From the IMG/VR virus record IMGVR_UViG_3300026549_000034, positions 64,001-128,000 of that record: a stretch of 64,000 bases of DNA; one strand, 5' to 3'. The notes below the pieces were generated by a model. It made no database searches. It was not told the origin of the DNA and was given only the letters and a program-made list of their open reading frames with translations. A program made the position numbers and the translations under genes. This stretch comes from a virus (Duplodnaviria > Caudoviricetes). This document shows positions 1 to 60,783 of this stretch, one piece after another. Numbering within the stretch: position 1 is the stretch's first letter; each line of letters begins with the position of its first letter.

Positions 1-411
1 TATAATGCATTCACAATTTATAATTTTGCGGTGATTTTCATCAGGATTGAAATATTCTTTACCTACTTTAGGAAAAATTTGTTCAATAATCTTACCAGCT
101 GTCATAAATACTTTCTTTTGATGTTCTTTTCCATCCCAACGAGCATCAAGATCTTTTAATAAAATACCGCCTTGTTCAGAATTTCGTTCAGTATTATTAC
201 GAATGAATATAATTTCTCCATCATTATTCATTGAAGCACTAATATTCATTCCATCAAGTTTTTCCTTAAGATGTTCGACTTTACCTTTAAATAATGAATC
301 AACTAATTCTATTAAATCATTAGCAGTAAAATCTGTATAATCAAAAGGATGAGCCATGTGTCCACCAGCACCACCTTCAAAAAGCATTATATATCTGGAT
401 AAATTAATCAT
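1..411 (-). CDS. Partial (runs off window) RNA-ligase/covalent nucleotidyltransferase-like phage protein (DUF6267-like) with leader peptide
   Basis: Not in ORF track. Manual translation from ATG 411: MINLSRYIMLFE-GGAGGHMAHPFD...KEKLDGMNI...IRN...INCECII. KxDG resembles ligase motif I and the E of NCECI resembles motif III. Confidence 0.6.
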   Translation of the reverse strand, partial: MINLSRYIMLFEGGAGGHMAHPFDYTDFTANDLIELVDSLFKGKVEHLKEKLDGMNISASMNNDGEIIFIRNNTERNSEQGGILLKDLDARWDGKEHQKKVFMTAGKIIEQIFPKVGKEYFNPDENHRKIINCECII

Positions 412-423
412 AATTATTTTATT

Positions 424-705
424 TTAATATTTTGTTTGTACTTTTTCAATATCATCGCTAAATCCAAATTCTGACAATTCATTAGCAGTAAATACTTTAG
501 AAGCTTCTTTGTATAAACTTATATATAATGATTCATATTCCGCACGTTTCCATTTATCTGTCTCATGATCATTTTTATATACATATGCTAATGCAAATAA
601 AATATTTTCTATATTAGCTATATTTAATTTTAATGAAACAAATTCACTATCATTTTTATTAACTGTATTTTTCTTAACTTCTAATAATGTTTTTAAATCT
701 TTCAT
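424..705 (-). CDS. Hypothetical protein with leader (MKDLKTLLE)
   Basis: ORF in tightly packed co-directional array. Confidence 0.7.
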   Translation of the reverse strand: MKDLKTLLEVKKNTVNKNDSEFVSLKLNIANIENILFALAYVYKNDHETDKWKRAEYESLYISLYKEASKVFTANELSEFGFSDDIEKVQTKY

Positions 706-735
706 AAAATTTTGTTAATAATCAATATTTTTTGT

Positions 736-969
736 TTAAAATGGTTTTTGCTTTAATGATTTTAATTTTGGAAGAAGCTTCTTTAACTCAGTTGACTCCC
801 AGCCTGTCTTTTCATAATGATCATCTTCAATAAAATGAATGAAGGAGTTTATAAATACTTTAAGTCCCTTTTCATAATAAAGATCATATAATTTGTCTGA
901 AACTTCAGTATTATAGTCAGAATAATCTTTACCAGCTTCACTTAATAAAATATCTTTAATATTTTTCAT
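736..969 (-). CDS. Hypothetical protein with leader (MKNIKDILLSE)
   Basis: ORF in array. Confidence 0.7.
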   Translation of the reverse strand: MKNIKDILLSEAGKDYSDYNTEVSDKLYDLYYEKGLKVFINSFIHFIEDDHYEKTGWESTELKKLLPKLKSLKQKPF

Positions 970-996
970 TATTATTAGTTGCTATTTATTTATAAT

Positions 997-1569
997 TTAT
1001 TTTGATCCTTTAATATATTTACCTGATACTTTTAAGTTTTTGAATTGCTTTACAACTACATCTTTTATCATTATATTATTTTTACCAATACCTACTTGAA
1101 CAAGTATCAAACATGCATCAGGACCCATTTTCTTTTGTTTATCTGATATATATATTCCTTCATTATCTAGTTTATGATAACATTTAATTTCAAAACATAA
1201 ATCACCTAAAGATAAATCATATGAATCATAATCCCCATTATCTAAATTATCATGTGTAATCATTTTTTCAAAATCACTACCAAAATAATCTTCAGATTCA
1301 ATTTCTTTATTTAATAAAAAGCTTAAATATTTTTCAATTAATATTCCTGCTGCAGAATATAATTCATATATTTCTTTATTATCTTCTTCTGAATTTGTTA
1401 AAAAATTAATATTTGCTCCATCAACATTAACGGTTAATATATTATTTGAAGATATAAGTTTTGATAATTTATTAGTTAATTGAATTTCTATATCATTCAT
1501 ATTATCATGCAAATTATTCAAAAATTTACTTTCATTTATATTCATTATGTAATTATTTAATGATTTCAT
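997..1569 (-). CDS. PD-(D/E)xK nuclease-like protein with leader
   Basis: E in LIEKY helix, then YD...FEIK (D-x8-EIK); leader MKSLNNYIMNINE. Confidence 0.5.
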   Translation of the reverse strand: MKSLNNYIMNINESKFLNNLHDNMNDIEIQLTNKLSKLISSNNILTVNVDGANINFLTNSEEDNKEIYELYSAAGILIEKYLSFLLNKEIESEDYFGSDFEKMITHDNLDNGDYDSYDLSLGDLCFEIKCYHKLDNEGIYISDKQKKMGPDACLILVQVGIGKNNIMIKDVVVKQFKNLKVSGKYIKGSK

Positions 1570-2047: not shown

Positions 2048-3190
2048 TTATTTAATATTTTTTAAAATATTATTATATTTTTCATCAATATCTTTATAAT
2101 TAATAGTTATTCTTTCATCATTAATTTTTACTATTGCATTATGATAATTACACATATTTTGAATTGGTATTAGATATTGTTTAACTATTTTCCAAATATA
2201 ACCTGTTTTTACTTTAATATCCTTTTTATCAAAATCATAATTAAAAGTTTCATTAAGAATATTTAATATATCATCATATACAATATATTTAATTTTCTTT
2301 TGAAATGTTGGACCTTCTTCCCAGCATTTATATCTGTTTATTGATAAATATGCAGCAATAATTATATTATAAATAGTATCTTTATCATAGAAAATATTAT
2401 GTGGTGATTTAATATCTATATCTTTAATATGCAAACTTTCAATAATATATTCTTTAAGAGTCATTATTTTATGTTCTTTAATTATGTTTTGTAATTGATT
2501 TTTAAACTCATCAAATGCATTAATAAAATCATTAAACATAGAACCTACACCTTTAGGCATTATCTTCTCAAAAGCTGATTTATCTTTATTCAATATGGAT
2601 TTACGAACAGCGGTTCCTGATACACCTTCAGTACGACCTTTACCGGTATTTACCTTAAGTTTTCCTATAAGTATATTTGGTAATGTTTTTCCTGATTTGA
2701 ATTCGACTTCGAGTTCAGTATATTTAGCTAAACCTTCAACGTTTTTCTCATAATCATCTTTACGATCATCACCGCACATCCAATCTCCTACTTCATATTC
2801 ATCTGAATGTTCAGTAATAAATTGATTATATTTTCCTAATGCATCATAAATATTAACTACAGGAACAACATCAATAATATTCTTATTAGCTTTCTTAACT
2901 ATTTCAAGTTCTTTATCAATCAATTCATTTGTAAAAGGGCGTTTAAGAAGTTCTTTTTCTTGTTCAGTTAAGTCACTTGTTGGATTATCAATATATTCTA
3001 TAACTTTATTGACAGATTCATCAGTCCAAGATTTACTTGCTATTTTAATTCCTTTCTTTTTACGTTCAATAGTCTTATTTGATGAATTAATTCTATATAT
3101 AATACATGGACCATCACCTTCATTAATCATATTCAAATGACCTTGTGTAAATGGTTGGAAGCGCCCGATCGCTATATTAAGTTTTTTCAT
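2048..3190 (-). CDS. HIGH-family nucleotidyltransferase (cytidylyltransferase/NMNAT-like) fused to a C-terminal domain
   Basis: IGRFQPFTQGH, RPF, CGDDR and VSGTAVR motifs; internal leader-like MTLKEYIIE at 2464. Confidence 0.75.
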   Translation of the reverse strand: MKKLNIAIGRFQPFTQGHLNMINEGDGPCIIYRINSSNKTIERKKKGIKIASKSWTDESVNKVIEYIDNPTSDLTEQEKELLKRPFTNELIDKELEIVKKANKNIIDVVPVVNIYDALGKYNQFITEHSDEYEVGDWMCGDDRKDDYEKNVEGLAKYTELEVEFKSGKTLPNILIGKLKVNTGKGRTEGVSGTAVRKSILNKDKSAFEKIMPKGVGSMFNDFINAFDEFKNQLQNIIKEHKIMTLKEYIIESLHIKDIDIKSPHNIFYDKDTIYNIIIAAYLSINRYKCWEEGPTFQKKIKYIVYDDILNILNETFNYDFDKKDIKVKTGYIWKIVKQYLIPIQNMCNYHNAIVKINDERITINYKDIDEKYNNILKNIK

Positions 3191-3194: not shown

Positions 3195-4376
3195 TTAATG
3201 TATTATTTTATAATCAGCCATAAAATGCGTTGGATAAATTCCACCATCTTTAGGTCTTATGTTAAATGTAAAATTAATATTAGATAAGTTTACTTCAATA
3301 TCTATTCTTTTAGCATTACCATCATTAGGATATTTTATAACAGCGCTTTTTATTGTATTACCAATAAATTTATTCAAATCATCTTCAGATCGCAAATCTA
3401 AATAATATACTTTAGATTTTACTAAATGAACAAGAATAAATCCATATCCTATTACTGATTTTGCAAATTCAAAAAATTTATATTTATTAATATCTTTAGT
3501 GATATCAACATTTAGTTTATTTGATTTTATTTTTCTTTCTTTATTTACATTATAATTATTAAATATATTTAAAAACAGTTGTGCATCAATATTAAATATA
3601 TTTAAAATTTCATTTCCAATTTCCCCAAATTCTTTTATATCATTATTTATAAATGCTGAATGTGGAAATACATCTTTATTATTTATTCCGGCATTTATAA
3701 ATGTTACTTTATCCCCATATTTCAATGACAAACATATGTCTTCTTGTGAATTTAATTTATCTTTATTCTGAATAGTTATTGTAACATCAGTAACCGCTTT
3801 ACCAATATTAAATTTATCAGATTTTGAATATTTTTTTCCTTCTTTAGGAAATGCATATAATTGACCATTAATTAAAGTTAAAGGGCGTTTTGTATTTTCT
3901 GCACCCATTGCTTTTGGGGTATCACATAAAATAATTTTTTTAGGATTATTACTTATTATCTTAAATAATTTATTTTGATATTCTTCATTATTTGTAAAAT
4001 TTTTAATAAAATCATCTTCAAATGCATTACCTTTATTTTTTGATGATAATCCGTTAATATATCCACTATAAGGACCTTTTGATATATCAGACCATTTAAA
4101 GCCAAATTCTTTTACTATATTATTAAATTCATTTTGTGCATTTTTATCAGTAATATCAATTTGTTTTAGTTTATTTACTGCTTCATCTGAAATTTCATTT
4201 GATTCAATTTCTGCATTTTTACCCAATTTAACTTTTTTATCTTTTATTAGAGTTTGAATAACTGCTCTTGGATAAAAATTAATATCATTATTATGTATAT
4301 GATTCCATTGCCCACTCATAGTTGCTTCAAAAATATTAACTACATGTTCAACAATATAATCTTGTAATCGTTTCAT
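3195..4376 (-). CDS. PD-(D/E)xK nuclease-like protein with leader
   Basis: NKGNAFE...VTDVTI...LSLKYG pattern; leader MKRLQDYIVE. Confidence 0.55.
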   Translation of the reverse strand: MKRLQDYIVEHVVNIFEATMSGQWNHIHNNDINFYPRAVIQTLIKDKKVKLGKNAEIESNEISDEAVNKLKQIDITDKNAQNEFNNIVKEFGFKWSDISKGPYSGYINGLSSKNKGNAFEDDFIKNFTNNEEYQNKLFKIISNNPKKIILCDTPKAMGAENTKRPLTLINGQLYAFPKEGKKYSKSDKFNIGKAVTDVTITIQNKDKLNSQEDICLSLKYGDKVTFINAGINNKDVFPHSAFINNDIKEFGEIGNEILNIFNIDAQLFLNIFNNYNVNKERKIKSNKLNVDITKDINKYKFFEFAKSVIGYGFILVHLVKSKVYYLDLRSEDDLNKFIGNTIKSAVIKYPNDGNAKRIDIEVNLSNINFTFNIRPKDGGIYPTHFMADYKIIH

Positions 4377-4431
4377 TATATTATATATTTAACTATATAT
4401 TATATATAAAAATAACTAATTTTTTATATAT

Positions 4432-4968: not shown

Positions 4969-5277
4969 TTATATTGTTATATTCATTTCATCTAATTCAT
5001 CTTTTGCCCATTGTGCTAATACATAAACAATATTATTTTTAAATTGATTAATAGTTTTCTTATTCCATTCGCATTCATCAGTTAAATAATCAAATGCATC
5101 TTTAACTAATTGATCATTTTGTTTTTTAGCCATAGCTTTCATATCTTTAATGAATTCTGAACGAGAATCATAAAAATCTTCTTTATAATGTTCATCCCAC
5201 CAATCAGCTAAATCCTGAGTCATTTCTTCTAAATCATCTTGAGATGATTCTTTAATAAAAAGTCTAATATCTTTCAT
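4969..5277 (-). CDS. Small acidic hypothetical protein with leader (MKDIRLFIKE)
   Basis: ORF in array. Confidence 0.7.
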   Translation of the reverse strand: MKDIRLFIKESSQDDLEEMTQDLADWWDEHYKEDFYDSRSEFIKDMKAMAKKQNDQLVKDAFDYLTDECEWNKKTINQFKNNIVYVLAQWAKDELDEMNITI

Positions 5278-5288: not shown

Positions 5289-5939
5289 TTAATATTTATT
5301 TTTTCTAACTTTATCATTTTTCTTAATATCATTTTCTGGTATTAAAATATATTCTTTTTTACCAGATTTTTTTACTTCATAATCATTATTTTCTATTAAA
5401 TCATTTAAATCATTATAACTAATCATATATAACTTAAATGAATTTTTCCTTTTATATACTTGAATGAAATAATCCCATGTCTTAATTTCTTCATCAAGGA
5501 ATAATATATATCTTTTTCCGTCTTTTAATTTACTTTTAATAAAATCAATGTCATCTAATGATAATGAATAATTGTGATTTTTTGATGACAAAGTATTTTT
5601 AACATCTATCAAAGTATTATTATATTTAATATCCCATTTTTCATTTCTGTCTTGTTCAATAGTTGAATATGTACAATCTTTACCAATTATTTCCCCTACC
5701 ATTGGTTCTATGCAAGTTTTTGAGAAAATCATTTTCCAAATAGAAATCAATGTTTCATTTGATGGATGATTACTATTAGATAACTCAACTAATTTATTAT
5801 AAAATTCTTCTGGAACAGAATCATTTAAATTATAATTATTATCAAACAATTTAGAACGATCAAATTTTTTCACTAAATCACGTAATTCTTCAATTTCATT
5901 ATTTAATTTTTCATAAATAAAACTTTTAATATCTTTCAT
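5289..5939 (-). CDS. PD-(D/E)xK nuclease-like protein with leader
   Basis: CIE...QDRNEKWDIK...IDVKN; leader MKDIKSFIYE. Confidence 0.5.
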   Translation of the reverse strand: MKDIKSFIYEKLNNEIEELRDLVKKFDRSKLFDNNYNLNDSVPEEFYNKLVELSNSNHPSNETLISIWKMIFSKTCIEPMVGEIIGKDCTYSTIEQDRNEKWDIKYNNTLIDVKNTLSSKNHNYSLSLDDIDFIKSKLKDGKRYILFLDEEIKTWDYFIQVYKRKNSFKLYMISYNDLNDLIENNDYEVKKSGKKEYILIPENDIKKNDKVRKNKY

Positions 5940-5961: not shown

Positions 5962-6606
5962 TTATTCATCCCAAGCTTTTATAACTTTTAAATTAGGGAT
6001 ATTTAAGTTTCTTGCTGCACTAACATTTTTATGATCATCATCTACAAATACAACTTTATCATATTTTCTACATATATCCTTAAGAACTATTGCTTTCTTT
6101 TCAGCATCTGTTTTTCCAGGATATTGTTTTATGTCATCATTTACTGCATGTGAAAATGTCTCTTTGAATGAATCACCAAGTTCTTTTAATGCACCGTCTT
6201 CATCTCTAAATTTCAAAAAATCTTTTATAGCTTTCTTAATTATATCTTCACATCCGCGTGCAGTCAAAAAACAAAAATCATATCCTGCTTTAATATAGTC
6301 ATCCATTATTTTTAGATTCTTAATCAATGGTGTTCCAGATATGATTGAATTATATACTTTAACTGGATCTCTAAAATCTCTATAGTCAAATAATGATTTC
6401 TTGTTAGGGTCTTCCGCATCCGGATCTTTAGCAAATTCTTCGGTAGATAACTGTGTTTCTGTTCCATCTTCATTCTTTTTATATATAGACATTAATGATG
6501 GATTTACTTTTAAAATAGTATTATCAATATCAAATACTATTAATCCTTTAATTGAATCAGGTAAATCTTTAACATGTTCTAAAATGTATACTTGTAAAGA
6601 TTTCAT
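5962..6606 (-). CDS. HAD-superfamily phosphatase (PNKP 3'-phosphatase-like) with leader
   Basis: FDIDNT (motif I), LTARG (II), K (III), FVDDD (IV); leader MKSLQVYILE. Confidence 0.8.
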   Translation of the reverse strand: MKSLQVYILEHVKDLPDSIKGLIVFDIDNTILKVNPSLMSIYKKNEDGTETQLSTEEFAKDPDAEDPNKKSLFDYRDFRDPVKVYNSIISGTPLIKNLKIMDDYIKAGYDFCFLTARGCEDIIKKAIKDFLKFRDEDGALKELGDSFKETFSHAVNDDIKQYPGKTDAEKKAIVLKDICRKYDKVVFVDDDHKNVSAARNLNIPNLKVIKAWDE

Positions 6607-6621: not shown

Positions 6622-6894
6622 TTATTTTATTCTTGAAATTATTTCAAAATCGTTTTCTTCAGCTTTATTAACGAAACATTCATTTACTTTAAGGTTTTCA
6701 ACCTTTTTAATTATTTCATCAACCTTTTCAGGAGTCAAATCCCAATCATAATATATATCACTTATTTCTGATATATCTTCTATTAAATATGCTCTAGGTT
6801 CTTCTCTCAAATAATAAGATACCATTGTATATTTAATATTGTTTAAATTATATGATTTTGCTTCATTAATTAAATAACTTTTAATATCTTTCAT
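6622..6894 (-). CDS. Hypothetical protein with leader (MKDIKSYLINE)
   Basis: ORF in array. Confidence 0.7.
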   Translation of the reverse strand: MKDIKSYLINEAKSYNLNNIKYTMVSYYLREEPRAYLIEDISEISDIYYDWDLTPEKVDEIIKKVENLKVNECFVNKAEENDFEIISRIK

Positions 6895-6922
6895 AATTTA
6901 AATTGTATTTTTAATTAAAAAT

Positions 6923-6951
6923 AAAAAAACCTATATTAATATAGGTCTTTT
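6923..6951. terminator. Intrinsic terminator-like hairpin
   Basis: acctatatt/aatataggt palindrome with A and T tails. Confidence 0.55.
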
Positions 6952-6974: not shown

Positions 6975-7403
6975 TTATTTTTCGGGTTCATAAAAATATA
7001 AATCATTATATAAAGAATTATCTATATAATATATATGATCTATCAAATAATATTTAGCATTTAAAAATTGACCACTATATATATGTATTTGATTTTGTGA
7101 CGAATTTTTATCATCGGAACAATATATTACACCTTGACTATTTTTTGTTATTTTTTCCTTACCAAGCAAATCAAAATCAGCATCTTTATCCTTAATTGTA
7201 TATACCATTGAATCTTTTGGTATATATATGTCATATAATGGTTTTAATTCCTTTTCAGTAAATGGCGATATGACTTTATCATTTAACACTTTACTATTAA
7301 ATGTAACAAATTGTCCTTTGCCAAACTTTTCAAATTTAGATGTTAAAGGTTTTATGTTTTTTACATTTAGTTTTTCTAAAATTTTATCTTTTAATGTCTT
7401 CAT
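6975..7403 (-). CDS. Hypothetical protein with leader (MKTLKDKILE-KLNVKNI)
   Basis: ORF in array. Confidence 0.7.
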   Translation of the reverse strand: MKTLKDKILEKLNVKNIKPLTSKFEKFGKGQFVTFNSKVLNDKVISPFTEKELKPLYDIYIPKDSMVYTIKDKDADFDLLGKEKITKNSQGVIYCSDDKNSSQNQIHIYSGQFLNAKYYLIDHIYYIDNSLYNDLYFYEPEK

Positions 7404-7411: not shown

Positions 7412-7846
7412 TTAATTAAATATTATTTTTCCTTCTCGTTGAACATTAGCTAATGAATCAGAACTATGCATACAATTTCTCATATTATCTTTACCATACT
7501 TATCTCTAAAATGGTGTTTGATTTCCTTCATTAATGAAATTGTATTTACTCCTGGATATTTGTCATAATCAAATGTATATTCAGCAGCTATAATTTCTCC
7601 AGAACCCATATATTTACAAAGATCATCATACCAATCTTCCTTTGAATGACAACCATATAAATTTTTAATTTGTTTATCTGTCAGTTTCATTGGATTAGTG
7701 TGATCATACATTATAAAACCTTTCTTATTTATATATTCAAATATTTCATCTTTATATTGTAGAAATCCTGGCTTAATTATAATAAATGCTTTACAATTTT
7801 CCGGAGTAGTCAAATATTCTATAATATAATCAAATAAGTTCTTCAT
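7412..7846 (-). CDS. ndk: Nucleoside diphosphate kinase with leader
   Basis: AFIIIKPG, LYGCH..WY..L..YM.SG, R..YG...RNCMHSSDS (catalytic His). Confidence 0.9.
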   Translation of the reverse strand: MKNLFDYIIEYLTTPENCKAFIIIKPGFLQYKDEIFEYINKKGFIMYDHTNPMKLTDKQIKNLYGCHSKEDWYDDLCKYMGSGEIIAAEYTFDYDKYPGVNTISLMKEIKHHFRDKYGKDNMRNCMHSSDSLANVQREGKIIFN

Positions 7847-7866: not shown

Positions 7867-8241
7867 TTAATCTTTGTAATATAATCCTTCAGGACCCCAT
7901 AAAAATACCGCAGTCTCACCATGTTCACCCATAGCCCCAACAGCCCATAAATTTTTTTCTCCATATTCTTTTATATAAGAATCAATATCAAATTCATTTT
8001 CAATCCATTCCATAAAATATCCTGATGAATCATATTTCTTTACAACATATTTTAATAATGAAGAAATAGTATGTGGTTTATCATAATCAATTATTGGGCA
8101 AGTAGCTATAATTTCCCACGGTTCACCATTATAATCATAAGCAGTTGTATTTAATTCTGCCTGTTTTAGTTGTTTATGATTATTCGTTTTTATGTTCTTA
8201 ACATCTAACTTTTCTTGTAATATTTGCTTTAATGTTTTCAT
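7867..8241 (-). CDS. Hypothetical protein with leader (MKTLKQILQE-KLDVKNI)
   Basis: ORF in array. Confidence 0.7.
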   Translation of the reverse strand: MKTLKQILQEKLDVKNIKTNNHKQLKQAELNTTAYDYNGEPWEIIATCPIIDYDKPHTISSLLKYVVKKYDSSGYFMEWIENEFDIDSYIKEYGEKNLWAVGAMGEHGETAVFLWGPEGLYYKD

Positions 8242-8771
8242 ATAAAAAACTTCATATTTTTAAGTGTACTATATTCTTTATCTGATAAATATATTCTAAT
8301 TATTGAATCTTTATATGATCGCCATATATACATATAATTATTATATAATGTACCTATACTGTTATTTGTAAATTGTATATAATATTTGTCACGCTTTAAA
8401 TAAAATTTAGATAATTCATTATTTATTTTTTCACAAATATCTTTAGATAATATTGGTGAATCATCTTCATTAAATAAATTTATTTTTACTCTATTACGAT
8501 TTATGTTAACATCTGGTATAAATAAATTTCCTTTATTATAGAATGAAAAATATAATCTTAATGAATTGTTTTTATCAGTACTAATTTCGATATCTTTTAA
8601 GTTATATTTATTATACAATTTTTGAATTTGACCAAAAAACATATTAAAATCATATTTATATAAAGTCTCCGAAGGTAACACTAATACTTCTTCAGTTGAA
8701 TAATCAAGTTGTGTATCTTTCATATCTCTTGATATTTTAAGTTTTTCAGCTATTTCTGAATATTTTTTCAT
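8238..8771 (-). CDS. Hypothetical protein with leader (MKKYSEIAE-KL)
   Basis: ORF with ATGA overlaps to its neighbours. Confidence 0.7.
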   Translation of the reverse strand: MKKYSEIAEKLKISRDMKDTQLDYSTEEVLVLPSETLYKYDFNMFFGQIQKLYNKYNLKDIEISTDKNNSLRLYFSFYNKGNLFIPDVNINRNRVKINLFNEDDSPILSKDICEKINNELSKFYLKRDKYYIQFTNNSIGTLYNNYMYIWRSYKDSIIRIYLSDKEYSTLKNMKFFI

Positions 8772-9213: not shown

Positions 9214-12200
9214 TTATTTAATAAGTATTTTTTCTTTAATTTTTTTATTATAAATATGTGATTTATCTAATGAATATTTTACATTAATATTATAGTATCC
9301 TTTGTTGTATATATTGTCATTTTTTGGTATTGATAATATTGACATGTTTGAATTACCATATATCTTAACATTGTTGCTTATACCAAATGATATAGGTTGT
9401 ATGTTCCATTTAGAATATACATCTAAGTTTGTTGGAAGCATTTTATTATTTTCTAATGAACATATTATCAAATCATCACTATTAAAATGATTTTTGCCGT
9501 TACTATCAATAAACTGCATTCTATTAATTAAAAATATATTATCGGAACTTGCATGTCTTAATATATACTGATTTCCTGAATTACCTGTAAATTCAATAGT
9601 ATTTTGATATTTATTTATGTCTAATATTGATGCAAATTTATCACAAGTATCTTTAGAAATAAATACTATATAATATTGTTGTTTATCATGCATCAAGAAC
9701 ATATCATAGTCATATTTTTCATTAAACTGAATATATGAATCATAAACTTCCTTAATTATCTCGCCTTCATCATAATCTATAGTTGTATCATTATTACTTG
9801 TTGTAATATTATTTACTTTATTGCATGTTATTGTAAATTTCTTATAGAAGAATTCTTTATATAAATCAACTTCATTACTTGTACTATCATAAGGTATTGG
9901 ATGTTCAATTGTTGAAATCTTATATAAATGCGGTGTAATTGTTACAGGATTGACTATAGATGAATTACATGAAAAGAACAATAATACTTTATATTCATTT
10001 CCTGATAATGTAATATATCCATGATTAATATATTCATTTACTATATTGTCACGTTCATCAAATATACATAATTTTACACATACAGCCCTATTAGTAGAAT
10101 CACATTCACAGTCTAATTTATATAGTCCCTTTAATCCAGTAAAGTCTTTACATAAATAGTTTATATAAGTATATTCATCATAGTCATCAGTAGGTGATTT
10201 TATTTGTAATGTATTTTGATCAATCTTATATGTCTCATGATAATTATATTCTATAGTACCATCTGAATTTATTTTAGACCAGTAGAATGAAGGATTTTGA
10301 ATATAAGCCATATCTAATGAATCAATATTTTTTCCATTGTTTAAGAAATATTGATAATAGTTTGATTCTTCAAGTCTAACATTAGGTATAGGATCAAGTT
10401 CATTACCTGTTATAGTATCTTTAAGACCTTTTACTGTGCAATAATATTTACCATCATTACGTTTTTCAAGATCAGAACAATTTTGTGAATTATAATAGCC
10501 AAATATATTTAATATTTTTGTTTGGTTCTTATAATAAAAATTAACTTTTAAATATATATTATTTGTATTATTATTGTAGTATTTAATAAATTCATTAGTT
10601 GTAGGTATAAAATCATTATATTGATTATTAGTCTTTTTTACAAAGCTATATGAGAATGACAATATATGTTTTTCACCTTTATATAAATAAACATAATTGT
10701 TGTTTTCAACATAAATATTTTTAATATCTACATTTAAATTATTTTGTTCATATTTATTTTCATTAGAAGCAAAGGATGCATAATCTTTATATATACAATA
10801 TCCTATGGAAATTTCATCATTATCTTCTATTATATTATACAATGATTCTGCATTTATGTTATTTTCATCTATATCATAGTTTGCAGTTCTACCAATAATA
10901 TAATATAATGCTTTACCTTCAATGATTTCTGGTTTATTACTACTTATTGTATATGCGTCTTGTCCATCTTTAGTTGATACACTTTCATCATCTATAATAC
11001 CAGATACTGTAAAAGTATTTGTGTATTTTTGTTTGTCAAATAATAAGTTTTTATATCGTACTGTGATGTTATTATAAAATGCTAATATATCTTGTCTATC
11101 ATCTTCAGTATCACCTTTTACATCTAACTTGAATAGATTATAAATATGTACATTATTAAGATATTTGTATGTATTTGATATATTAATTTTTTCTTGATAT
11201 CTACTTACTAAGTCACCGATTTTTGATAATCTAGTATCATCACCATCATTATCATATAAATAATCCCAATATCTAATTCCGAAAGATATATCATTTACAT
11301 TGACAAAATCTGGAAACCACATATAAGAATTAAAATATACCTTGTCATCAGTTATAGACTTTATTTGAGAAAAGTTTGAAAATATTTTTGATGGTTCATT
11401 ATAGAAATCATATGTATTTATATAGTTAGTTATGTCTAATTTTGTCTTATTGTCATCATTATAATTTACAAGTATACCATATTCATTATCCGAATCATCC
11501 TCTTTATGTTGTTTAAGGACATTATTTAGTTCATTAATGTCATTACACCAATATTGATATTGTAATGTTCCAATATGAATGTCAAGTTCACCAAGTTTAA
11601 TTATAAAGTCATAATCATACCAAACATTATTTACACACAAATATAAAGTAAATTCAGAATTTACATATCTTCCTAATGGTTTTTTAGCAAAATATTCTAT
11701 CAATTTAGGATATATTACAAATGAGTTATATATATAATTAGATGTTTGTATAAAGTTAAAAGAATTCTTGTATATAATTGAATTAGTATTTTTTTCTTTT
11801 AATATTAATATACAACTACAATATGTATTGTCATTTGTTATTATTTTAATAGGTACATTTATACAAGTATCATTAATTAAATACCAATCATAATTTTCTG
11901 AATTTTCATATATTTCATCAAGTTCTTCTTTAGTACTATCTTCTATTGCTTTATTAGATAATCTATACTCATTAAAATGCTCATCAACATAATGATATTG
12001 ATGTGTAATGAATCTTAAGTTTGATTTTGGAAATTCTACATTTATATTATTTTGAATTTGTAGATTAATTGTATTTTCATGTAAATGTGTCTTACAGTAA
12101 GAAAACAACTTAATGTCATTAGTATATACTTTATGTTCAAGCGAAATATTTTTTAAGTTAACAAATATTGGCAAGAAATATTTTCTATAATAATATGCTA

Positions 12201-13368
12201 AACAAGATATCTTTAAAGCCAACTCATTAAATGAATAATGAAAATATGAATCAATATATGAATAACGTTGTTCTTTAAGGTATTCATTAGTTTCAACAAC
12301 AGTCTGTGCAGTTGTCAAATCAATAAGCTTTGGATTGCCTTCACCCCAAAATATAATTTGATCTTCATTATTATTTATAATAGATTGTTCATATCTTTCT
12401 CCATTTTCTTTATTTAACTTGAGTTGTAAAGAAACATATTGAGTATTTATGAAGTTTTTAAATGCTAATAATATATCAGTATGAATATCAAAATAATCTC
12501 TAATAAATTGTTGTTTTACTTCATTTGTTGTTTCTACTAATTTATATAAAGTAAGTTTGTCATAAAAGCCAAACCATTTTAATGAATCTATTGCAGAATT
12601 ATAATTACCACATTCACCTTTGATATTCATGTAGTTAATCATATATTCCTTTAATTTTCTGTTATATAGTTCTTCATTAAATTGGTCATTGAAGAAACTT
12701 GTACCATTTATAGCTCTTAATATGTCTTTAGGTAAGTCTACCCCCATATTCTTACCATGAATATATAAAGTCTCATACATATCTATAAATGTACCGCCAA
12801 CAGTAATAGGACACCAAATTTGATCATCATTATATTTCTTTGTTATGTTTATCATAATATTAGAAGTCCATGTTCCCGGTTCATCTGTCTTACCAATTAC
12901 ATAAATAGGAATAAGTAATAATGATCTATCGTTATCTTTTATTTTTACAACAATAATATCTTCATCATTATTTGAAGACAAATTCAATATTGGTTCTAAT
13001 TGACCAGTTTCACTATTATATGTATGTGAAATAGTTGATATATCTATAGTATCAGTTATTGAATTGATATTATATATTTTTTCCTGAAAACTATTAGCTT
13101 TTATAAAACTAAATATTTTTGAATCAATAGTAATATTAATATCATATAAGTCTGATATACTATTTTCACTAAATATGTCTATATTGTCTTCAATTTCATA
13201 TAATATATTTATAGATCTGGCATAGTAATTATTTATAGATAAATTTTGACAATCTGTTGTGTCATTTATCCAAAATACATAAGGATTTTCTTCATATTCA
13301 TATCCTATTGGTTTCTTTTTATAAGATGTTAATGTAAAAGTATGTCCACTATTATCTAAAAAATACAT
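9214..13368 (-). CDS. Large virion structural protein, probably baseplate wedge (gp7-like N-terminal region)
   Basis: 1384 aa; KGECGNYNSAIDSLKWFGF resembles wedge (gp7/P2 I-like) motif; late-type motif upstream. Confidence 0.5.
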   Translation of the reverse strand: MYFLDNSGHTFTLTSYKKKPIGYEYEENPYVFWINDTTDCQNLSINNYYARSINILYEIEDNIDIFSENSISDLYDINITIDSKIFSFIKANSFQEKIYNINSITDTIDISTISHTYNSETGQLEPILNLSSNNDEDIIVVKIKDNDRSLLLIPIYVIGKTDEPGTWTSNIMINITKKYNDDQIWCPITVGGTFIDMYETLYIHGKNMGVDLPKDILRAINGTSFFNDQFNEELYNRKLKEYMINYMNIKGECGNYNSAIDSLKWFGFYDKLTLYKLVETTNEVKQQFIRDYFDIHTDILLAFKNFINTQYVSLQLKLNKENGERYEQSIINNNEDQIIFWGEGNPKLIDLTTAQTVVETNEYLKEQRYSYIDSYFHYSFNELALKISCLAYYYRKYFLPIFVNLKNISLEHKVYTNDIKLFSYCKTHLHENTINLQIQNNINVEFPKSNLRFITHQYHYVDEHFNEYRLSNKAIEDSTKEELDEIYENSENYDWYLINDTCINVPIKIITNDNTYCSCILILKEKNTNSIIYKNSFNFIQTSNYIYNSFVIYPKLIEYFAKKPLGRYVNSEFTLYLCVNNVWYDYDFIIKLGELDIHIGTLQYQYWCNDINELNNVLKQHKEDDSDNEYGILVNYNDDNKTKLDITNYINTYDFYNEPSKIFSNFSQIKSITDDKVYFNSYMWFPDFVNVNDISFGIRYWDYLYDNDGDDTRLSKIGDLVSRYQEKINISNTYKYLNNVHIYNLFKLDVKGDTEDDRQDILAFYNNITVRYKNLLFDKQKYTNTFTVSGIIDDESVSTKDGQDAYTISSNKPEIIEGKALYYIIGRTANYDIDENNINAESLYNIIEDNDEISIGYCIYKDYASFASNENKYEQNNLNVDIKNIYVENNNYVYLYKGEKHILSFSYSFVKKTNNQYNDFIPTTNEFIKYYNNNTNNIYLKVNFYYKNQTKILNIFGYYNSQNCSDLEKRNDGKYYCTVKGLKDTITGNELDPIPNVRLEESNYYQYFLNNGKNIDSLDMAYIQNPSFYWSKINSDGTIEYNYHETYKIDQNTLQIKSPTDDYDEYTYINYLCKDFTGLKGLYKLDCECDSTNRAVCVKLCIFDERDNIVNEYINHGYITLSGNEYKVLLFFSCNSSIVNPVTITPHLYKISTIEHPIPYDSTSNEVDLYKEFFYKKFTITCNKVNNITTSNNDTTIDYDEGEIIKEVYDSYIQFNEKYDYDMFLMHDKQQYYIVFISKDTCDKFASILDINKYQNTIEFTGNSGNQYILRHASSDNIFLINRMQFIDSNGKNHFNSDDLIICSLENNKMLPTNLDVYSKWNIQPISFGISNNVKIYGNSNMSILSIPKNDNIYNKGYYNINVKYSLDKSHIYNKKIKEKILIK

Positions 13369-38083: not shown

Positions 38084-38109
38084 ACTATATATTAAAAATA
38101 AAAAAATAT

Positions 38110-50267: not shown

Positions 50268-51440
50268 ATGATACTTAATACAAAGGGATATGCTTATAAT
50301 GATGTGACTATTGTTCCTGCAAAAATTTCAGATATTACTTCTAGAAGTGAGTGCAATCCATATATCAAAAATACAGAATTGCCAATATTTACTGCGCCAA
50401 TGGCAAGTGTTGTTGATGATAGTAATTATAATATTTTTCTACAAAACAAAATAACACCAATTATTCCAAGAAATATTGACATAAAAACTCGTATTTTGTT
50501 GATGAATAAAGAAATATGGGTTGCATTGTCATTAAGGGAATTTAAAGATTTGTTCATTAATAATTATAAAGATAGAATTGATGAATGTTGTAATCATTAT
50601 CATATATGTGTTGATATTGCTAATGGTCATATGAAGTCTTTGTATGATAAATGCCTTGTTGCAAAAATACATGCAAGTTATAACAAGTATGAATTGACTA
50701 TAATGACTGGCAATATTGCTAATCCAGAAACATATAAATGGATTTGCAACCTTAATGATACTAGTGATATTAAAGTTATAGATTATATACGATGTGGAAT
50801 TGGTTCTGGTGCTGGTTGTATTACTTCATCAAATACATCTATTCATTATCCTATGGCTTCATTGATTGATGAATGCTATCAAATCTATAAACATTATAAA
50901 AACTATACATCTAAAGATATATGTCCAGAAATTATAGCTGATGGTGGTATTAGAAATTATTCTGATGTCATTAAGGCATTGGCTCTCGGTGCTAATTATG
51001 TTATGATTGGCGGTCTTTTTTCACAATGTATTGAATCTGCCGGAGATAAATATAGTATGAATCAACTTAATAAAATAGATATGAGATTCAATTATAATGC
51101 ATGGGTAGAAGATTCATTACGAATAAATGAAAATGGTGAATGGTTTGGACATATTAAAGAATTGAAAGATGAAAAATATATTGGTCAATTACATGTAAAG
51201 TTCTTTGGTATGGCTTCAGCAGATGGTCAAAAATCTATATCTGGCCGGAAGACAAAGACTGCGGAAGGCATTACAAAAATGTTGCCAGTAAAATATAAGT
51301 TATCTTCATGGATAGAAAATATGACAAGCTATCTTCGTTCTGCAATGTCATATACAAATTGCAAAACGCTTAATGATTTTATTGGAAAACAAACATTAAT
51401 TCCAAATAGTATTTCAGAAATACAATCAGTGAACAAGTAA
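50268..51440 (+). CDS. GMP reductase / IMPDH-family protein
   Basis: DV..VP, SRSEC, APM..V, VDIANGH, GNIA, GIGSGAGCIT, ADGG, GA..VMIG, FFGMAS, LRSAMSY. Confidence 0.85.
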   Translation: MILNTKGYAYNDVTIVPAKISDITSRSECNPYIKNTELPIFTAPMASVVDDSNYNIFLQNKITPIIPRNIDIKTRILLMNKEIWVALSLREFKDLFINNYKDRIDECCNHYHICVDIANGHMKSLYDKCLVAKIHASYNKYELTIMTGNIANPETYKWICNLNDTSDIKVIDYIRCGIGSGAGCITSSNTSIHYPMASLIDECYQIYKHYKNYTSKDICPEIIADGGIRNYSDVIKALALGANYVMIGGLFSQCIESAGDKYSMNQLNKIDMRFNYNAWVEDSLRINENGEWFGHIKELKDEKYIGQLHVKFFGMASADGQKSISGRKTKTAEGITKMLPVKYKLSSWIENMTSYLRSAMSYTNCKTLNDFIGKQTLIPNSISEIQSVNK

Positions 51441-54382: not shown

Positions 54383-54416
54383 AAATGGACTGAATCTTAA
54401 GATTCAGTCCATTTTT
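54383..54416. terminator. Bidirectional terminator
   Basis: Perfect 32-bp palindrome aaatggactgaat-cttaag-attcagtccattt. Confidence 0.85.
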
Positions 54417-55954: not shown

Positions 55955-56245
55955 TTATAATCTCCATCCCATTGATGTTCCTACAGCCCCCATAACAAGT
56001 TTTGATGTCAATAATGAGCCAAAACTTCCTTTTACATCTACACCTAATGCTTTACAAACGGCTTGCATAAGTTTGGGACCTACAGTTGTTCCTAATAACC
56101 CACCTGTAACTGCACCAAGTATACCTTCATCAATAGGTACATTATTTTCTTTTGCTTCTTGAAGTTTTTGAATCATTTCATCATATAATAGTGATTCATT
56201 TACTTGTTGTTCTTCATTATTTATTATTTCTTCTATTGTTTTCAT
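55955..56245 (-). CDS. Small protein: acidic N-terminus with xNE/IDE sites, then glycine-zipper hydrophobic C-terminus
   Basis: VNE-S, IDE-GILGAVTGGLLGTTVG. Confidence 0.7.
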   Translation of the reverse strand: MKTIEEIINNEEQQVNESLLYDEMIQKLQEAKENNVPIDEGILGAVTGGLLGTTVGPKLMQAVCKALGVDVKGSFGSLLTSKLVMGAVGTSMGWRL

Positions 56246-56652
56246 TTTTGAATCATAAAATATAATGTATTTGGCTTTTGATTTTTAGTATCTACAAATA
56301 TTTCAATATAATCATTTTCATATATTGCTGCAACTGCTGTACTTCCTGGAGTATCTTTTGTTTTATATGTTGCCGATATATAATTTTCTTCGGTTAAATT
56401 TAATTTATTTCTATGTTCTCTAATAAGTTCCTTAATTTCATCATTATTACCATCAGTATTATCAATTAATACATATACTTTTTTATTTGGTTTGAAATAT
56501 TGTGAAATAAAAGATCTTATATCGGAATTAAATGTATTAGGACTCCAGTTTTTAAATTCAGTATAATCGTTTAATATCTTAATATCTTTATAATTAAAAA
56601 TATTATCTATATTAATATTTTTTATGTTTAATTTTTCTAAAATAGATATCAT
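56242..56652 (-). CDS. Hypothetical protein with short leader (MISILE-KLNIKNI), paralog of 56880
   Basis: Shares DYTEFK.WSPNTFN.DIR.FI..YFKPNKKVYVLI. Confidence 0.8.
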   Translation of the reverse strand: MISILEKLNIKNINIDNIFNYKDIKILNDYTEFKNWSPNTFNSDIRSFISQYFKPNKKVYVLIDNTDGNNDEIKELIREHRNKLNLTEENYISATYKTKDTPGSTAVAAIYENDYIEIFVDTKNQKPNTLYFMIQK

Positions 56653-56813: not shown

Positions 56814-56890
56814 TTAGTATTTGTCTTTACGTCTATCTGCTTGAAGTTTCTTTTGTGTTTATTATTTCTTCTATTGTTTTCATTTTTGAA
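56814..56890 (-). pseudogene. Chimeric gene remnants (start of the 55955 gene plus end of an AAA-ATPase allele)
   Basis: 56858-56890 is identical to 56220-56252; 56814-56849 encodes KLQADRRKDKY* vs RLQADRRKNKY* at the AAA gene end. Confidence 0.8.
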
Positions 56891-57296
56891 ATAAATAATA
56901 TATTGTGTTTTTTAGTTTCCCATAATCTATAGGAGATATAAATATTTCTGTATTACCATCATCATATACCAATGAAACTGCCGTACTTGCAGGTGATTTT
57001 ATACTGTTACGTTTAGCATTTAATACATCATACTCAGAATATCCCAATATACGTCTATGATTACCAATTAAATGATTATTTTTGTCATCATTATCATTAA
57101 TTATTAATACATATACTTTCTTATTAGGCTTAAAATATTTTTTAATAAAAGCTCTAATATCTATATTAAATGTATTAGGACTCCAATCTTTAAATTCGGT
57201 ATAGTCTTTTAATGTTTTTGTATTATCATTATTAAAAATTGGATCTTTATCTATTTGAATATTCTGAATATTTAATTTTTCAAAAATTGATTTCAT
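56880..57296 (-). CDS. Hypothetical protein with short leader (MKSIFE-KLNIQNI), paralog of 56242
   Basis: Start set to ATG 57296 by alignment with the paralog. Confidence 0.75.
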   Translation of the reverse strand: MKSIFEKLNIQNIQIDKDPIFNNDNTKTLKDYTEFKDWSPNTFNIDIRAFIKKYFKPNKKVYVLIINDNDDKNNHLIGNHRRILGYSEYDVLNAKRNSIKSPASTAVSLVYDDGNTEIFISPIDYGKLKNTIYYLFQK

Positions 57297-57325: not shown

Positions 57326-58129
57326 TTAATCACCATTATATCTTGGATTTCCATATTGATCCGTTTGACCATATCCCATTGTCCAAGAAAGTTTTTCATC
57401 ATCACTTAGGCTATTCCACCATTTTTTCCATTCTTCTTCTGCCTTTTTACGTTTTTCCTCTTCTTCTTGATGTTTTTTAATGGCTTCTTTTTCTTTTCTA
57501 TCAGCTTCATCAGCCCATTCTTTAAGGTGTTTTACATCTTTAAGATCTTTAATTTTTTCTTCTCTTTCTTTATTAAAAATATTATTATTTACTTTTATTT
57601 CTAATACAGTATTATCATATTCCTTTTCTGAAGATTCATCCATGGTAACCGAAATCTTACCTTTCATGTATGGCTTTAACATAGTTAACCAATTATTCCA
57701 ATCTTCATTATACTTATAATAATTATATTCAACATATTTATCAGAATACCAAGCACCTGCATATGTATATTCTTGTATTTCTGGTATTACTGTCCAATTT
57801 TTAGTATTTTCTTTTGTTGGGAAATCTTTATATGTTATGCGATCTGCTGGTAATGGAAGTCGAATCATTTGTGCATATGACTTTAAAAATTTTATAACTT
57901 TTACTCCGTTTTCTTTTTGACTTTCTTCAGTTCTTTCTGCACCAAAATATATTTTCTTTATATTGGCTTTTGTTATTTTATAATTTTTGTTTTTTGCACC
58001 TTCATTATATATATCAAAAGTATATGGTAAATCTATTTGAAATTTACCTTCATTAACAGCATTACCAATAATATCCTTAGAATAAGATATTAGTTCATTT
58101 TCATTTATATAATCTTTTAAGTTCTTCAT
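57326..58129 (-). CDS. Hypothetical protein with leader (MKNLKDYINE; AVNE-G)
   Basis: 267-aa ORF with charged C-terminal helix. Confidence 0.75.
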   Translation of the reverse strand: MKNLKDYINENELISYSKDIIGNAVNEGKFQIDLPYTFDIYNEGAKNKNYKITKANIKKIYFGAERTEESQKENGVKVIKFLKSYAQMIRLPLPADRITYKDFPTKENTKNWTVIPEIQEYTYAGAWYSDKYVEYNYYKYNEDWNNWLTMLKPYMKGKISVTMDESSEKEYDNTVLEIKVNNNIFNKEREEKIKDLKDVKHLKEWADEADRKEKEAIKKHQEEEEKRKKAEEEWKKWWNSLSDDEKLSWTMGYGQTDQYGNPRYNGD

Positions 58130-58148
58130 ATATTTTAACTTTTATAAT

Positions 58149-58760
58149 TTATTCTTTATACCAGCTTGGAATATTTTTTAATGAAGTACAACCTTTAAAT
58201 GTATTAAACATATCAGTAACTTTAGATACATTCCAATTACTTAAATCTGCATTAAAATCATAACATTCATAAAACATATTATCAATTCTTTTTATATTAG
58301 ATACATCCCAATTGCTTAGATCAGAATTAAAATCATAACAAAATGCAAACATAGAACTTGTAATTGTAACACTTGATACATCCCAATTACTTAAATCAGA
58401 TTCAAATTTATTACAATCATAAAACATATGATGCATATCAGTAACTTTAGATACATCCCATTTACTTAGATCAGATGAAAAATTCTTACAATATAGAAAT
58501 ATACCATTCATATCAGTAACATTACTTACATTCCATCTTGATATGTCTATATTATGAGGATCTAACTTATTAAATAGTAATGACATATCGGTTATTTCAC
58601 TAACATCAATATCATTTAAATCTGCATCCTTATCCCTTTCTAATCTGGCTTCAACTATGTTTCTTAGATCATTTTTACTTTTAGGTTTACATGTATAATG
58701 ATCTATATTAATGTCTTTTATATTAAGCTTTTCTAATATGTAGTTATTTAGGTTCTTCAT
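58149..58760 (-). CDS. DUF285/BspA-type leucine-rich repeat protein with leader
   Basis: Repeats FNSDLSNWDVS.VT.M..MF..C; LNDIDVS.ITDM. Confidence 0.9.
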   Translation of the reverse strand: MKNLNNYILEKLNIKDINIDHYTCKPKSKNDLRNIVEARLERDKDADLNDIDVSEITDMSLLFNKLDPHNIDISRWNVSNVTDMNGIFLYCKNFSSDLSKWDVSKVTDMHHMFYDCNKFESDLSNWDVSSVTITSSMFAFCYDFNSDLSNWDVSNIKRIDNMFYECYDFNADLSNWNVSKVTDMFNTFKGCTSLKNIPSWYKE

Positions 58761-58783
58761 ATATTTTGTTTTTTTATGATTTA

Positions 58784-59239
58784 TTATTTGTACCAGCTTG
58801 GTTTATTTTTTAAAGAAGTACATCTAAAAAACATATCTTTCATATTTATAACATTAGATACATCCCAATTATTTAAATCACAATTAAAATATTTACAAGA
58901 ATCAAACATATAGCTCATATAAGTGCATTTTGATACATTCCAATTACTTAAATCAGAATTAAAATTTTTACAATATACAAACATATTACTCATATTTGTA
59001 ACATTTGAAACGTCCCATTCAGATATATCAATATTATGTGGATCTAATCCGGCAAATAAACTGGCCATATTTGTTATTTGGCTAACATCAATATCATTTA
59101 AATCAGCATTTTTATCTTCTTTTAAACGTTTTTCCAATATCTGTCTAAGTTCTTCTTTTGTCTTAGGAAAATATTTATATTGATTTCTTATATCTTTTAC
59201 GTTGAGCTTCTCAAATATGTAGTTATTTAAGTTCTTCAT
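58784..59239 (-). CDS. DUF285/BspA-type leucine-rich repeat protein with leader
   Basis: Same repeats, two fewer units. Confidence 0.9.
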   Translation of the reverse strand: MKNLNNYIFEKLNVKDIRNQYKYFPKTKEELRQILEKRLKEDKNADLNDIDVSQITNMASLFAGLDPHNIDISEWDVSNVTNMSNMFVYCKNFNSDLSNWNVSKCTYMSYMFDSCKYFNCDLNNWDVSNVINMKDMFFRCTSLKNKPSWYK

Positions 59240-59244
59240 ATATC

Positions 59245-60783
59245 TTAATATTTGTTTTTTCTTCTGTCAGCCTGTAATCTCATTTGTTCTTTTATCATTT
59301 CCTTTGTTAGCATATCATCTTCATCTTTCATTGATTCAAATAATGTTGCACAAATTAAGAAAGTACGAATAGAAACTTCCATTTCATTGTCTTCTTCATT
59401 AAGTTGTATAAGATATCCTAATGCTTTACGTTTTGATTCTTTTGAAAGTTTGTCAGAACTTAATGTAGGCATAAGATTTGTTATTATCTTAAGTACATCT
59501 TCAGTACTAAAATGTATGTCCTGTATATATGATCTACCACGTAATGCAGTATCTAATGATCCAGCATTATAGTTTGTTATGATTATTACTGATCCATTAT
59601 AATAGAAACGTTTAGGAAGTTCATTGCCATTTTCATCAGTAATTTTTCCAGATACGCCATAAGTAACTAAACGTCCCTTCTCATCTTCCGTACTATCAAG
59701 AGCTCCTTTTAATATATTTATACAATCTTCTGGGGCTTTAGGACCAACCAATGAATCTGCATCATCAATAACAATTATGTCTCCTTTGTCTTTGTAATTA
59801 TATAATGAAAGATATAATACTCTTGGTGTACATTTACCTTTTATTGTATAAAGATTCTTTTCTTCTTCATACCCATTTTCCTTTAATAGTTTCTTTACTC
59901 TAAATGTCTTTCCTACACCAGGAGCACCGCAAAGTATAACAGATGGATTGATTCCCTTAATAACCATCTTCACATATCCTTCCATTTTCTTAAACACCAT
60001 TTCAGGATCATTTATTGTTTCTTTGAATTTGGTTTCTGATTGTTGTTCTTCTGGTGATTTTTTTATTGTTATATTATTTCCTTTATCAACTTTAAGTTTT
60101 ATTTCATCAACAGTTTTTGCACCGCCCTGTATAGCCTTTATAATTTCTCTAAATTCATCTGCTATATCTCTATACTGTAATGCAGCTTGAGGTGAATCAT
60201 TTTTTCTTTTTTCTGCATCCAACCAAGCTCTACGTTTTGCTGTTACATATTCATCAACTTCTGGTGAATATTTTTCATTTATAACTGTATATTTTAATGC
60301 ACCAATATAGAATGATTCATTTGCATTCTTATTGAATATAGATCTTCCTAATTTCTTGGCCTCAGCATCTGTCAAATCATATTGTTTATTGTTTACTACT
60401 GTCCAAATAATAGGAAGAAAATATACTATTGATGAATCTAATGTTTGTATAGTTAAGTTAGATTTTGCTTTACCAGTAAATGCTAAATCCATATCTTTGA
60501 AAAAATCAATAGAATATGGATTCATTGATTCTGAAGACTTTATCCAGTTTATTTGAAACATTTGAACATTTTCTTTTGAATTAATGACAATATACTGTTT
60601 AGATATGAATTCATTATCTTTTGAAAATGTTTCAACATATCCTACTAATGGAACAATATTCTTAATATGTTTCTTTAATAAATCAGATATTTTATCAACA
60701 TAACTATCAAAGTTCTTATTACTAATTGATTCATTAAGAACATTTTGTCTTCTTTTAATAAAATCTAAATAACTATTTTTCAT
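59245..60783 (-). CDS. AAA+ ATPase domain protein
   Basis: GAPGVGKT, VIDDAD, IIITN, ALRGR; N-terminal VLNE-S site. Confidence 0.8.
   Translation of the reverse strand: MKNSYLDFIKRRQNVLNESISNKNFDSYVDKISDLLKKHIKNIVPLVGYVETFSKDNEFISKQYIVINSKENVQMFQINWIKSSESMNPYSIDFFKDMDLAFTGKAKSNLTIQTLDSSIVYFLPIIWTVVNNKQYDLTDAEAKKLGRSIFNKNANESFYIGALKYTVINEKYSPEVDEYVTAKRRAWLDAEKRKNDSPQAALQYRDIADEFREIIKAIQGGAKTVDEIKLKVDKGNNITIKKSPEEQQSETKFKETINDPEMVFKKMEGYVKMVIKGINPSVILCGAPGVGKTFRVKKLLKENGYEEEKNLYTIKGKCTPRVLYLSLYNYKDKGDIIVIDDADSLVGPKAPEDCINILKGALDSTEDEKGRLVTYGVSGKITDENGNELPKRFYYNGSVIIITNYNAGSLDTALRGRSYIQDIHFSTEDVLKIITNLMPTLSSDKLSKESKRKALGYLIQLNEEDNEMEVSIRTFLICATLFESMKDEDDMLTKEMIKEQMRLQADRRKNKY

Follow-up and report, generated by a model that had tools for sequence, protein, structure and literature searches.

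In bacteriophage T4, the first ten residues of the internal protein IPIII are sufficient for packaging; within this capsid targeting sequence (CTS), targeting is governed chiefly by residues 4 and 7, processing by residues 8 and 10, an Asp at position 10 blocks processing, and the gp21 protease cleaves after L/I-x-E (PMC9026906). The CTS of IPII and IPIII and the related propeptides of IPI, Alt and gp24 were described by Mullaney and Black (1996; reviewed in PMC9026906, PMC3012670), and Rao and Black portrayed the internal proteins of T-even phages as highly varied, with only the CTS in common (PMC3012670). Here we describe a comparable leader, with the consensus M-K-[NDST]-[LI]-x-x-[YF]-I-x-E at the extreme N-terminus, on many genes of an uncultured tailed virus (Caudoviricetes; IMG/VR record IMGVR_UViG_3300026549_000034). 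The window analyzed, 64,000 nucleotides in length, spans positions 64001-128000 of a 193,181-bp linear viral contig (G000; 26.7% G+C, 265 called genes) that CheckV estimates to be about 68% complete. Roughly one in five genes of the contig bears the leader. From sequence comparison we judge, with moderate confidence, that in this clade it directs proteins to the capsid and marks them for protease processing, as the T4 signal does, and that it has come to be carried by about a fifth of the genes.

The nearest relatives of G000, by comparison of its baseplate protein, were five uncultured viral contigs. Two relatives are essentially complete, G001 (376 kb, 26.9% GC) and G002 (223 kb, with terminal repeats, 38.5% GC); a partial one, G003, was included in pattern scans. 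By its capsid protein the clade groups with the jumbo phages Tenacibaculum pT24, PTm1, Sphingomonas PAU and the Prevotella Lak phages.

The first-pass annotation of this DNA had listed 22 N-termini as clear cases of a shared leader, and each was confirmed at the start of its gene, always on the minus strand; the motif could not be fitted to three looser cases (56245, 56806 and 60783), which were left out of the counts. Across G000, 39 genes carry the leader in strict form and about 55 when small insertions or deletions are allowed. Its length ranges from 6 to 13 residues, the residue two before the Glu is Ile, Leu or Val, and about half of the copies run on into a second conserved segment, KLN[IV]K[ND]I. 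The core [YF]7-[ILV]8-x-E10 was found at 32 of the 265 starts, against 0.43 expected from its internal frequency, an enrichment of about 74-fold, and a strict regular expression that matched the 39 starts had only four internal matches, two of them probably true starts. Scanned as a DNA pattern, M-x5-[YF]-I-x-E occurred ten times on the minus strand of the window and never on the plus strand, compared with a single match to the reversed pattern; over the whole contig the figures were 31 and 2. The strict pattern also occurred in G001 (27 matches) and the partial G003 (18), with no control matches. Because Lak-B5 (543 kb and equally AT-rich) and PTm1 had no strict matches and pT24 only one, composition can be excluded as the cause of the leader. 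The scan of genome and relatives that had been proposed as a check thus returned a clear enrichment. Degenerate DNA scans for the extended leader across the viral contig collection gave zero matches, and a leader profile searched against 1.8 billion proteins gave only three at E <= 1e-3, the motif being too short to reach significance.

The distribution is wider than was first supposed. Restriction to the minus strand holds for all 22 tagged genes of the window; genome-wide, 14 of the 55 lie on the plus strand. Tagged genes are not confined to two arrays but are spread beyond them across the genome, and metabolic genes, thought to lack the tag, include two that carry it, a nucleoside diphosphate kinase (7412-7846, minus strand, 144 aa) and a HAD-family hydrolase (5962-6606, minus strand, 214 aa).

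Conservation over the first ten codons might in principle reside in the mRNA, as a translation-initiation enhancer or a repressor operator. Three features would suit such an element: the strong AT-richness of the genome, the frequency of Lys at codon 2 in untagged genes too (73/226), and a slight excess of C-ending codons within the leader. However, third codon positions are free: all synonymous codons are in use (AAA/AAG, GAA/GAG, TAT/TAC, ATT/ATA/ATC, TTA/CTT/CTA), substitutions are conservative at the amino-acid level (Y/F, I/L/V, L/I), and the DNA upstream of tagged genes is not conserved. Since the codons vary synonymously and the upstream DNA does not match, the constraint is at the level of the protein. 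The information content is highest at positions 4, 7, 8 and 10, not near the start codon; position 2 is also held, while the others drift. Furthermore, G002, at 38.5% GC, retains the peptide core with different codons, the leader being one residue shorter on its DUF285 family. We therefore regard an RNA-level element as highly improbable. Among 78 leader-like starts of G000 and G001 collected without imposing a Glu, position 10 was Glu in 60 and Asp in none, Glu and Asp being equally common in the two proteomes; in most of the remaining starts the Glu was shifted by an insertion of one to three residues. S, G, A or T made up 30 of the 39 residues directly following the leader Glu in G001. Where bodies are 41-79% identical, orthologues retain the determinant positions. 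Tagged and untagged proteins could not be told apart by isoelectric point or length.

The leader is an N-terminal add-on, since the Pfam domains of the nucleoside diphosphate kinase and the HAD hydrolase begin only at residues 19 and 22. The bodies behind it were described as mostly unrelated folds, and by BLAST most of them are indeed singletons (about 39); the exceptions are two pairs, including the paralogues at 56242-56652 and 56880-57296, and one 12-member family of DUF285 repeats. Two members of that family lie in the window (58149-58760 and 58784-59239); matches of the family to DUF285 (PF03382) exceed the Pfam curated threshold, with E = 1.6e-51 and 3.7e-46. A ferritin-like protein and an AAA_5 ATPase were also identified among tagged proteins, and weak matches to RNA ligase, phosphoribosyltransferase and GNAT acetyltransferase were obtained; PHROGs and Pfam searches left most of the cargo without annotation, and protein atlas look-ups of the 357-aa and 346-aa cargo proteins yielded nothing usable. 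The structure of the DUF285 member at 58149-58760 was modelled with its paralogues as the alignment. The solenoid body was predicted with a per-residue confidence (pLDDT) of 97-99, and the leader as a helix over residues 4-12 at pLDDT of about 60, followed by a disordered tether.

Six tagged proteins have orthologues in G001 that retain the tag; in G002 the kinase homologue is untagged and the ATPase homologue has a decayed copy. Tagged bodies had a G001 homologue far less often than untagged ones (6/55, or 11%, vs 93/196; p = 3e-7), yet G000 and G001 each hold about 40 tagged genes; with so few tagged bodies in common, the label is stable and the cargo turns over. The modular tag on unrelated, fast-changing bodies is thereby borne out, and the rapid turnover is in keeping with the diversity described for the internal proteins of T-even phages (PMC3012670).

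Two DUF285 paralogues have unusual leader junctions (L004:6448-7290 and L007:1479-2390; coordinates prefixed L002, L003, L004 and L007 refer to pieces of G000). In one of the two the junction is tandemly duplicated. In the other, a full leader is followed by about 110 aa of unrelated inserted sequence, a second internal junction and then the repeat body, an arrangement that resembles a fusion of two tagged genes.

Such junctions, and the fact that tagged genes form a fast-turnover accessory set, could be read as signs that the shared N-terminus is a functionless by-product of gene cassettes shuffled behind existing gene starts, whose first codons are simply inherited. Mobile regulatory cassettes reportedly mediate shuffling in T4-type genomes. 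We consider this explanation improbable, as no nucleotide homology was found on which recombination could act, the upstream DNA being unconserved and the codons varying synonymously. Hitch-hiking would also not account for constraint on positions 2, 4, 7, 8 and 10 alone, for the complete bias towards Glu over Asp at position 10, or for determinants retained in orthologues whose bodies have diverged so far, which indicates purifying selection on the peptide. Given this pattern of selection, cassette hitch-hiking and an RNA-level element are both unlikely.

The likeness to the T4 CTS noted in the first-pass annotation stands up well: the two have the same length, the same four determinant positions and an obligatory Glu10. 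Both are 10-mers at the very start of the protein, in which residues 4 and 7 are hydrophobic, residue 8 is Ile and residue 10 is Glu. Both also conform to the L/I-x-E rule of gp21 and are attached to proteins with no other relationship to one another; a gp23-type capsid protein and a gp21-type protease accompany the tag in T4 and, on the present side, in the relatives G001 and G002. The differences are that T4 has two or three such genes, compared with about 40-55 per genome in this clade; that the cargo here includes recognizable enzymes and a 12-member repeat family; that position 4 is Leu or Ile here and Tyr in T4; and that about half of the copies here add the KLN[IV]K[ND]I segment. As a control, the DNA pattern run on T4 found ipII and ipIII, both beginning MKTYQEFIAE and both annotated as internal head proteins, along with gp61.1 (AF158101, 18966-19130), a 54-aa hypothetical protein encoded beside the primase gene and beginning MKTFKEFIKE.

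The polymorphic internal-protein loci of T-even phages (IPI* and others) likewise combine a conserved label with quickly diverging, lineage-specific cargo, but the scale here is far larger, with many islands across the genome, and whereas the T-even loci encode anti-restriction proteins, no cargo here has been tied to a defence system. The ejection or inner-body proteins of phiKZ, 201phi2-1 and SPN3US offer another parallel, in that dozens are packed in the head, cleaved after Glu, and made with propeptides thought to target them to the prohead (PMC5694885, PMC10052503). Those propeptides, however, are long (often >100 residues), share no common short tag and are cleaved at S/A/G-x-E, and the phages belong to a lineage separate from the PTm1, pT24, PAU and Lak group. 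Identity of the leader with a propeptide of this type was considered and rejected in view of its length and of the Ile, Leu or Val, not S/A/G, two residues before the Glu. Encapsulins provide an analogy only: a short terminal peptide loads unrelated enzymes, including ferritin-like proteins, into an HK97-fold shell, but the peptide is usually C-terminal, is not removed by a protease, and serves a bacterial nanocompartment. We found no published report of an expanded CTS-tagged repertoire. The principle of diverse proteins sharing a common CTS is already known from T-even phages; what is new is the scale and the kind of cargo.

A gp21-like protease, proposed as a test of the capsid connection, was absent from the 68%-complete G000 but present in both G001 and G002, where a Peptidase_S77 domain is fused to a coiled-coil stretch some 400 residues long. 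In both genomes the gene adjoins a Gp23-family capsid gene, and its equivalent in PTm1 is annotated as 'prohead core scaffolding protein and protease'. The N-terminus of the protease in the relatives is itself a 10-mer ending in I-Y-E, and the capsid propeptides of G001, G002, PTm1, pT24, LR756500 and Lak-B5 contain [IL]-x-E sites at which cleavage is predicted. Across the clade, protease N-termini and capsid propeptides thus share I/L-x-E followed by a small residue. No solved structure matched the G001 capsid protein by sequence, which left its predicted maturation site unaligned to T4 gp23.

The capsid gene is linked to the tag more directly by a tagged 65-aa protein encoded outside the window (L003:5028-5225, G000 41028-41225, minus strand; G001 orthologue at 44193-44366). 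Behind the leader it has two collinear motifs copied from capsid residues 61-120 and, at its C-terminus, a highly basic tail. Its top non-orthologous BLAST match in the whole proteome is the capsid protein (E = 3e-7 in G001, 6e-8 in G002), with a shuffle z-score of 14. By sequence, the protein reads like a capsid N-arm in which the 42-residue propeptide has been swapped for the 10-residue leader. It is a candidate internal head protein that may bind both DNA and the inner capsid surface, and as an N-arm mimic with a basic tail it is a specific and testable one. Separately, a loosely tagged 81-aa protein (L002:11159-11404, G000 29159-29404) has weak similarity (E = 8e-4 over 48 aa) to a 1614-aa giant protein that G001 encodes upstream of the protease.

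Tagged and untagged genes also differ in their predicted expression context. Of the 210 untagged genes, 23 have a promoter-like element, TACTATAT, 30-40 nt ahead of the gene; it precedes 0/55 tagged genes (p = 0.006). The genes it precedes include those for ligase, topoisomerase subunits and Ro60, of the replication type and on the plus strand, and its sites in the window include 20044, 20721, 38075, 38083, 49253 and others on that strand; it is a candidate early or middle promoter. A second element, TTATTTTTA, usually followed by a TATA-like box, precedes 11/55 tagged vs 9/210 untagged genes (p = 4.5e-4). The two are mutually exclusive, no gene having both, and the tagged genes are thus set apart from the promoter class of the replication genes. 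All seven head-tail module genes of G001 have TTATTTTTA upstream, as do 5/41 tagged genes compared with 2/242 genes in long early-type arrays (p = 8.6e-4). Strand bias agrees, tagged genes strongly favouring the strand opposite to that of the replication genes: 41 tagged genes of G000 are on the minus and 14 on the plus strand, compared with 40 and 170 for untagged genes (p = 2e-14), and the six long plus-strand arrays of G001, about 240 genes in total, hold no tagged gene. The tagged array at 56.2-59.2 kb of the window follows genes for a baseplate wedge subunit and an AAA ATPase, and the first terminator-like site is reached at 54383-54414. Two other candidate signals were discarded. The T4 late-promoter consensus, TATAAATA, was as frequent as expected (127 observed vs ~126) and was an inconsistent marker of structural genes in the relatives, and ATATAGTA, seen upstream of some tagged genes, proved to be the reverse complement of the TACTATAT of divergent plus-strand genes. 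A scan for sigma-70-type promoters found fewer sites than in shuffled sequence.

If the leader is a capsid targeting signal, it would form a short amphipathic helix on a flexible tether that docks the attached protein onto the prohead core, built in this clade around the protease-scaffold fusion. The gp21-type prohead protease would then cut after the Glu of I-x-E and remove the leader, and the mature protein would stay inside the head with the DNA. Spread over some 40-55 genes per genome, the label would remain as cargo was quickly swapped, the cargo being mostly small proteins of unknown function together with the DUF285 repeat family and some enzymes. We infer docking, cleavage, presence in the virion and injection, and hence delivery of tagged enzymes and binders at infection, from this resemblance. 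The fuller proposal, that a rumen or gut clade of giant phages pre-loads about 40-55 interchangeable proteins per genome (nucleotide-handling enzymes, a ferritin-like protein, an AAA ATPase and repeat-protein binders) and delivers them with the DNA, is offered as a tentative possibility.

Several observations weigh against a capsid destination. The search of G000 found no protease, capsid, sheath or tube gene, presumably because the head module falls in the absent third of the genome, and the link to the protease rests on relatives with 39-59% identity in the baseplate protein. TTATTTTTA, whose role as a late promoter is itself an inference, is found at only 11 of the 55 tagged genes, and the 14 tagged genes of the plus strand sit among early-type genes. 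The extended leader has Lys after the Glu, where capsid sites have a small residue. T4 gp61.1 is not, to our knowledge, a head protein, and because it has a T4-like leader, the leader alone is no proof of packaging. We know of no packaged repertoire using such a tag that approaches one-fifth of the genes, nor of a precedent for nucleoside diphosphate kinase, HAD hydrolase, ferritin-like protein or AAA ATPase as head content.

Those same cytoplasmic enzymes, with the AAA_5 ATPase among them, lend themselves to the main rival explanation: that the leader is a protein-level tag for some other destination (a chaperone or AAA translocase, a multi-enzyme complex, another assembly) or a propeptide for activation in the cytoplasm. 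An AAA ATPase gene (59245-60783) lies beside the tagged array, Iyer et al. (PMC7824862) speculate that AAA proteins of jumbo phages may translocate other proteins during assembly or into heads, and a detached amphipathic helix of the kind modelled could bind many kinds of partner. On the other hand, the requirement for Glu and not Asp, with small residues next, suggests a glutamyl protease of the gp21 type, active only inside proheads; one tagged protein has a copy of the capsid N-arm; the motif fits the T4 determinants position by position; and neither an alternative hub nor a second protease was identified. We find a non-capsid destination rather doubtful.

Should the tag work as it does in T4, the motif alone would identify the packaged proteome of an uncultured giant-phage clade. 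Targeting to the head would then supply a list of candidate first-strike proteins, for counter-defence or host take-over, among proteins that are now unannotated; it would mean that the signal for targeting and processing known from T4 is an ancient one, portable far outside the T-even group, and it would offer a source of naturally diversified tags for loading phage capsids. If heads are indeed pre-loaded, new cargo could be recruited simply by gaining ten codons.

The tagged genes of the window, all on the minus strand, begin at its left edge with a 406-aa gene that runs past the edge (1-411) and has a loose tag, with Glu at position 12, and the weak RNA-ligase match. It is followed by genes of 93 aa (424-705; a 9-residue leader variant), 77 aa (736-969; Glu at position 11), 190 aa (997-1569; a 3-residue insertion ahead of the Glu) and 150 aa (1592-2044; strict leader). 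An untagged 380-aa gene (2048-3190, minus strand) lies inside this array; its cytidylyltransferase-like N-terminus is weak and sub-threshold (Pfam E = 0.0018), and by this sequence likeness it may encode a nucleotidyltransferase. The next tagged gene (3195-4376, 393 aa) has a strict leader, a body that matches phrog_8438 (unknown function) from residue 28, and a TTATTTTTA promoter-like element upstream (4407-4415, minus strand). Strict leaders are also found on the genes of 102 aa (4969-5277) and 216 aa (5289-5939) that precede the HAD hydrolase, the G001 orthologue of which is 79% identical and tagged. Beyond it, a 90-aa gene (6622-6894) with Glu at position 11 has a TTATTTTTA element upstream (6916-6924, minus strand), itself downstream of a hairpin. 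The nucleoside diphosphate kinase, whose G001 orthologue is tagged, lies between genes of 142 aa (6975-7403) and 124 aa (7867-8241), both with extended leaders, that of the former reading on into KLN[IV]KNI. The array closes with a 177-aa gene (8238-8771) whose 9-residue leader differs from the T4 sequence mainly by one absent residue.

Tagged genes then become scattered. A 357-aa protein of unknown function (13738-14811) has a strict leader, and a TTATTTTTA element (15755-15763, minus strand) stands at the head of a large minus-strand array, upstream of the gene at 14887-15723. Two isolated minus-strand islands each consist of a tagged gene with a TTATTTTTA of its own: a 346-aa gene (33391-34431; 9-residue leader; element at 34466-34474) and a 150-aa gene (37595-38047; extended leader; element at 38093-38101). 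In the right-hand array, transcription would pass from the baseplate wedge subunit (60836-62557, minus strand; phrog_219), with no terminator in between, through the untagged AAA ATPase (512 aa, minus strand), which has the same direction, to the tagged genes. These are the DUF285 proteins of 151 aa and 203 aa, a 267-aa gene (57326-58129; strict leader) whose tagged G001 orthologue is 62% identical, and the two paralogues with 6-residue truncated leaders, one of 138 aa counted from an internal Met (56880-57296) and one of 136 aa in which KLNIKNI follows (56242-56652). The terminator-like hairpin at 54383-54414, which is bidirectional, ends this unit of baseplate and tagged genes.

Elsewhere in the window, four very large proteins of 1384, 1979, 761 and 784 aa (9214-13368, 40108-46047, 46905-49190 and 21542-23896, respectively) had no match in Pfam or PHROG searches and are presumably virion components. 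A gene of the IMP dehydrogenase / GMP reductase family (50268-51440, plus strand; Pfam E = 2.7e-34) was present in this phage genome. Finally, the protein encoded at 38891-39961 on the plus strand has a lipoprotein-like N-terminal signal peptide that, by eye, would be compatible with a Bacteroidota host.

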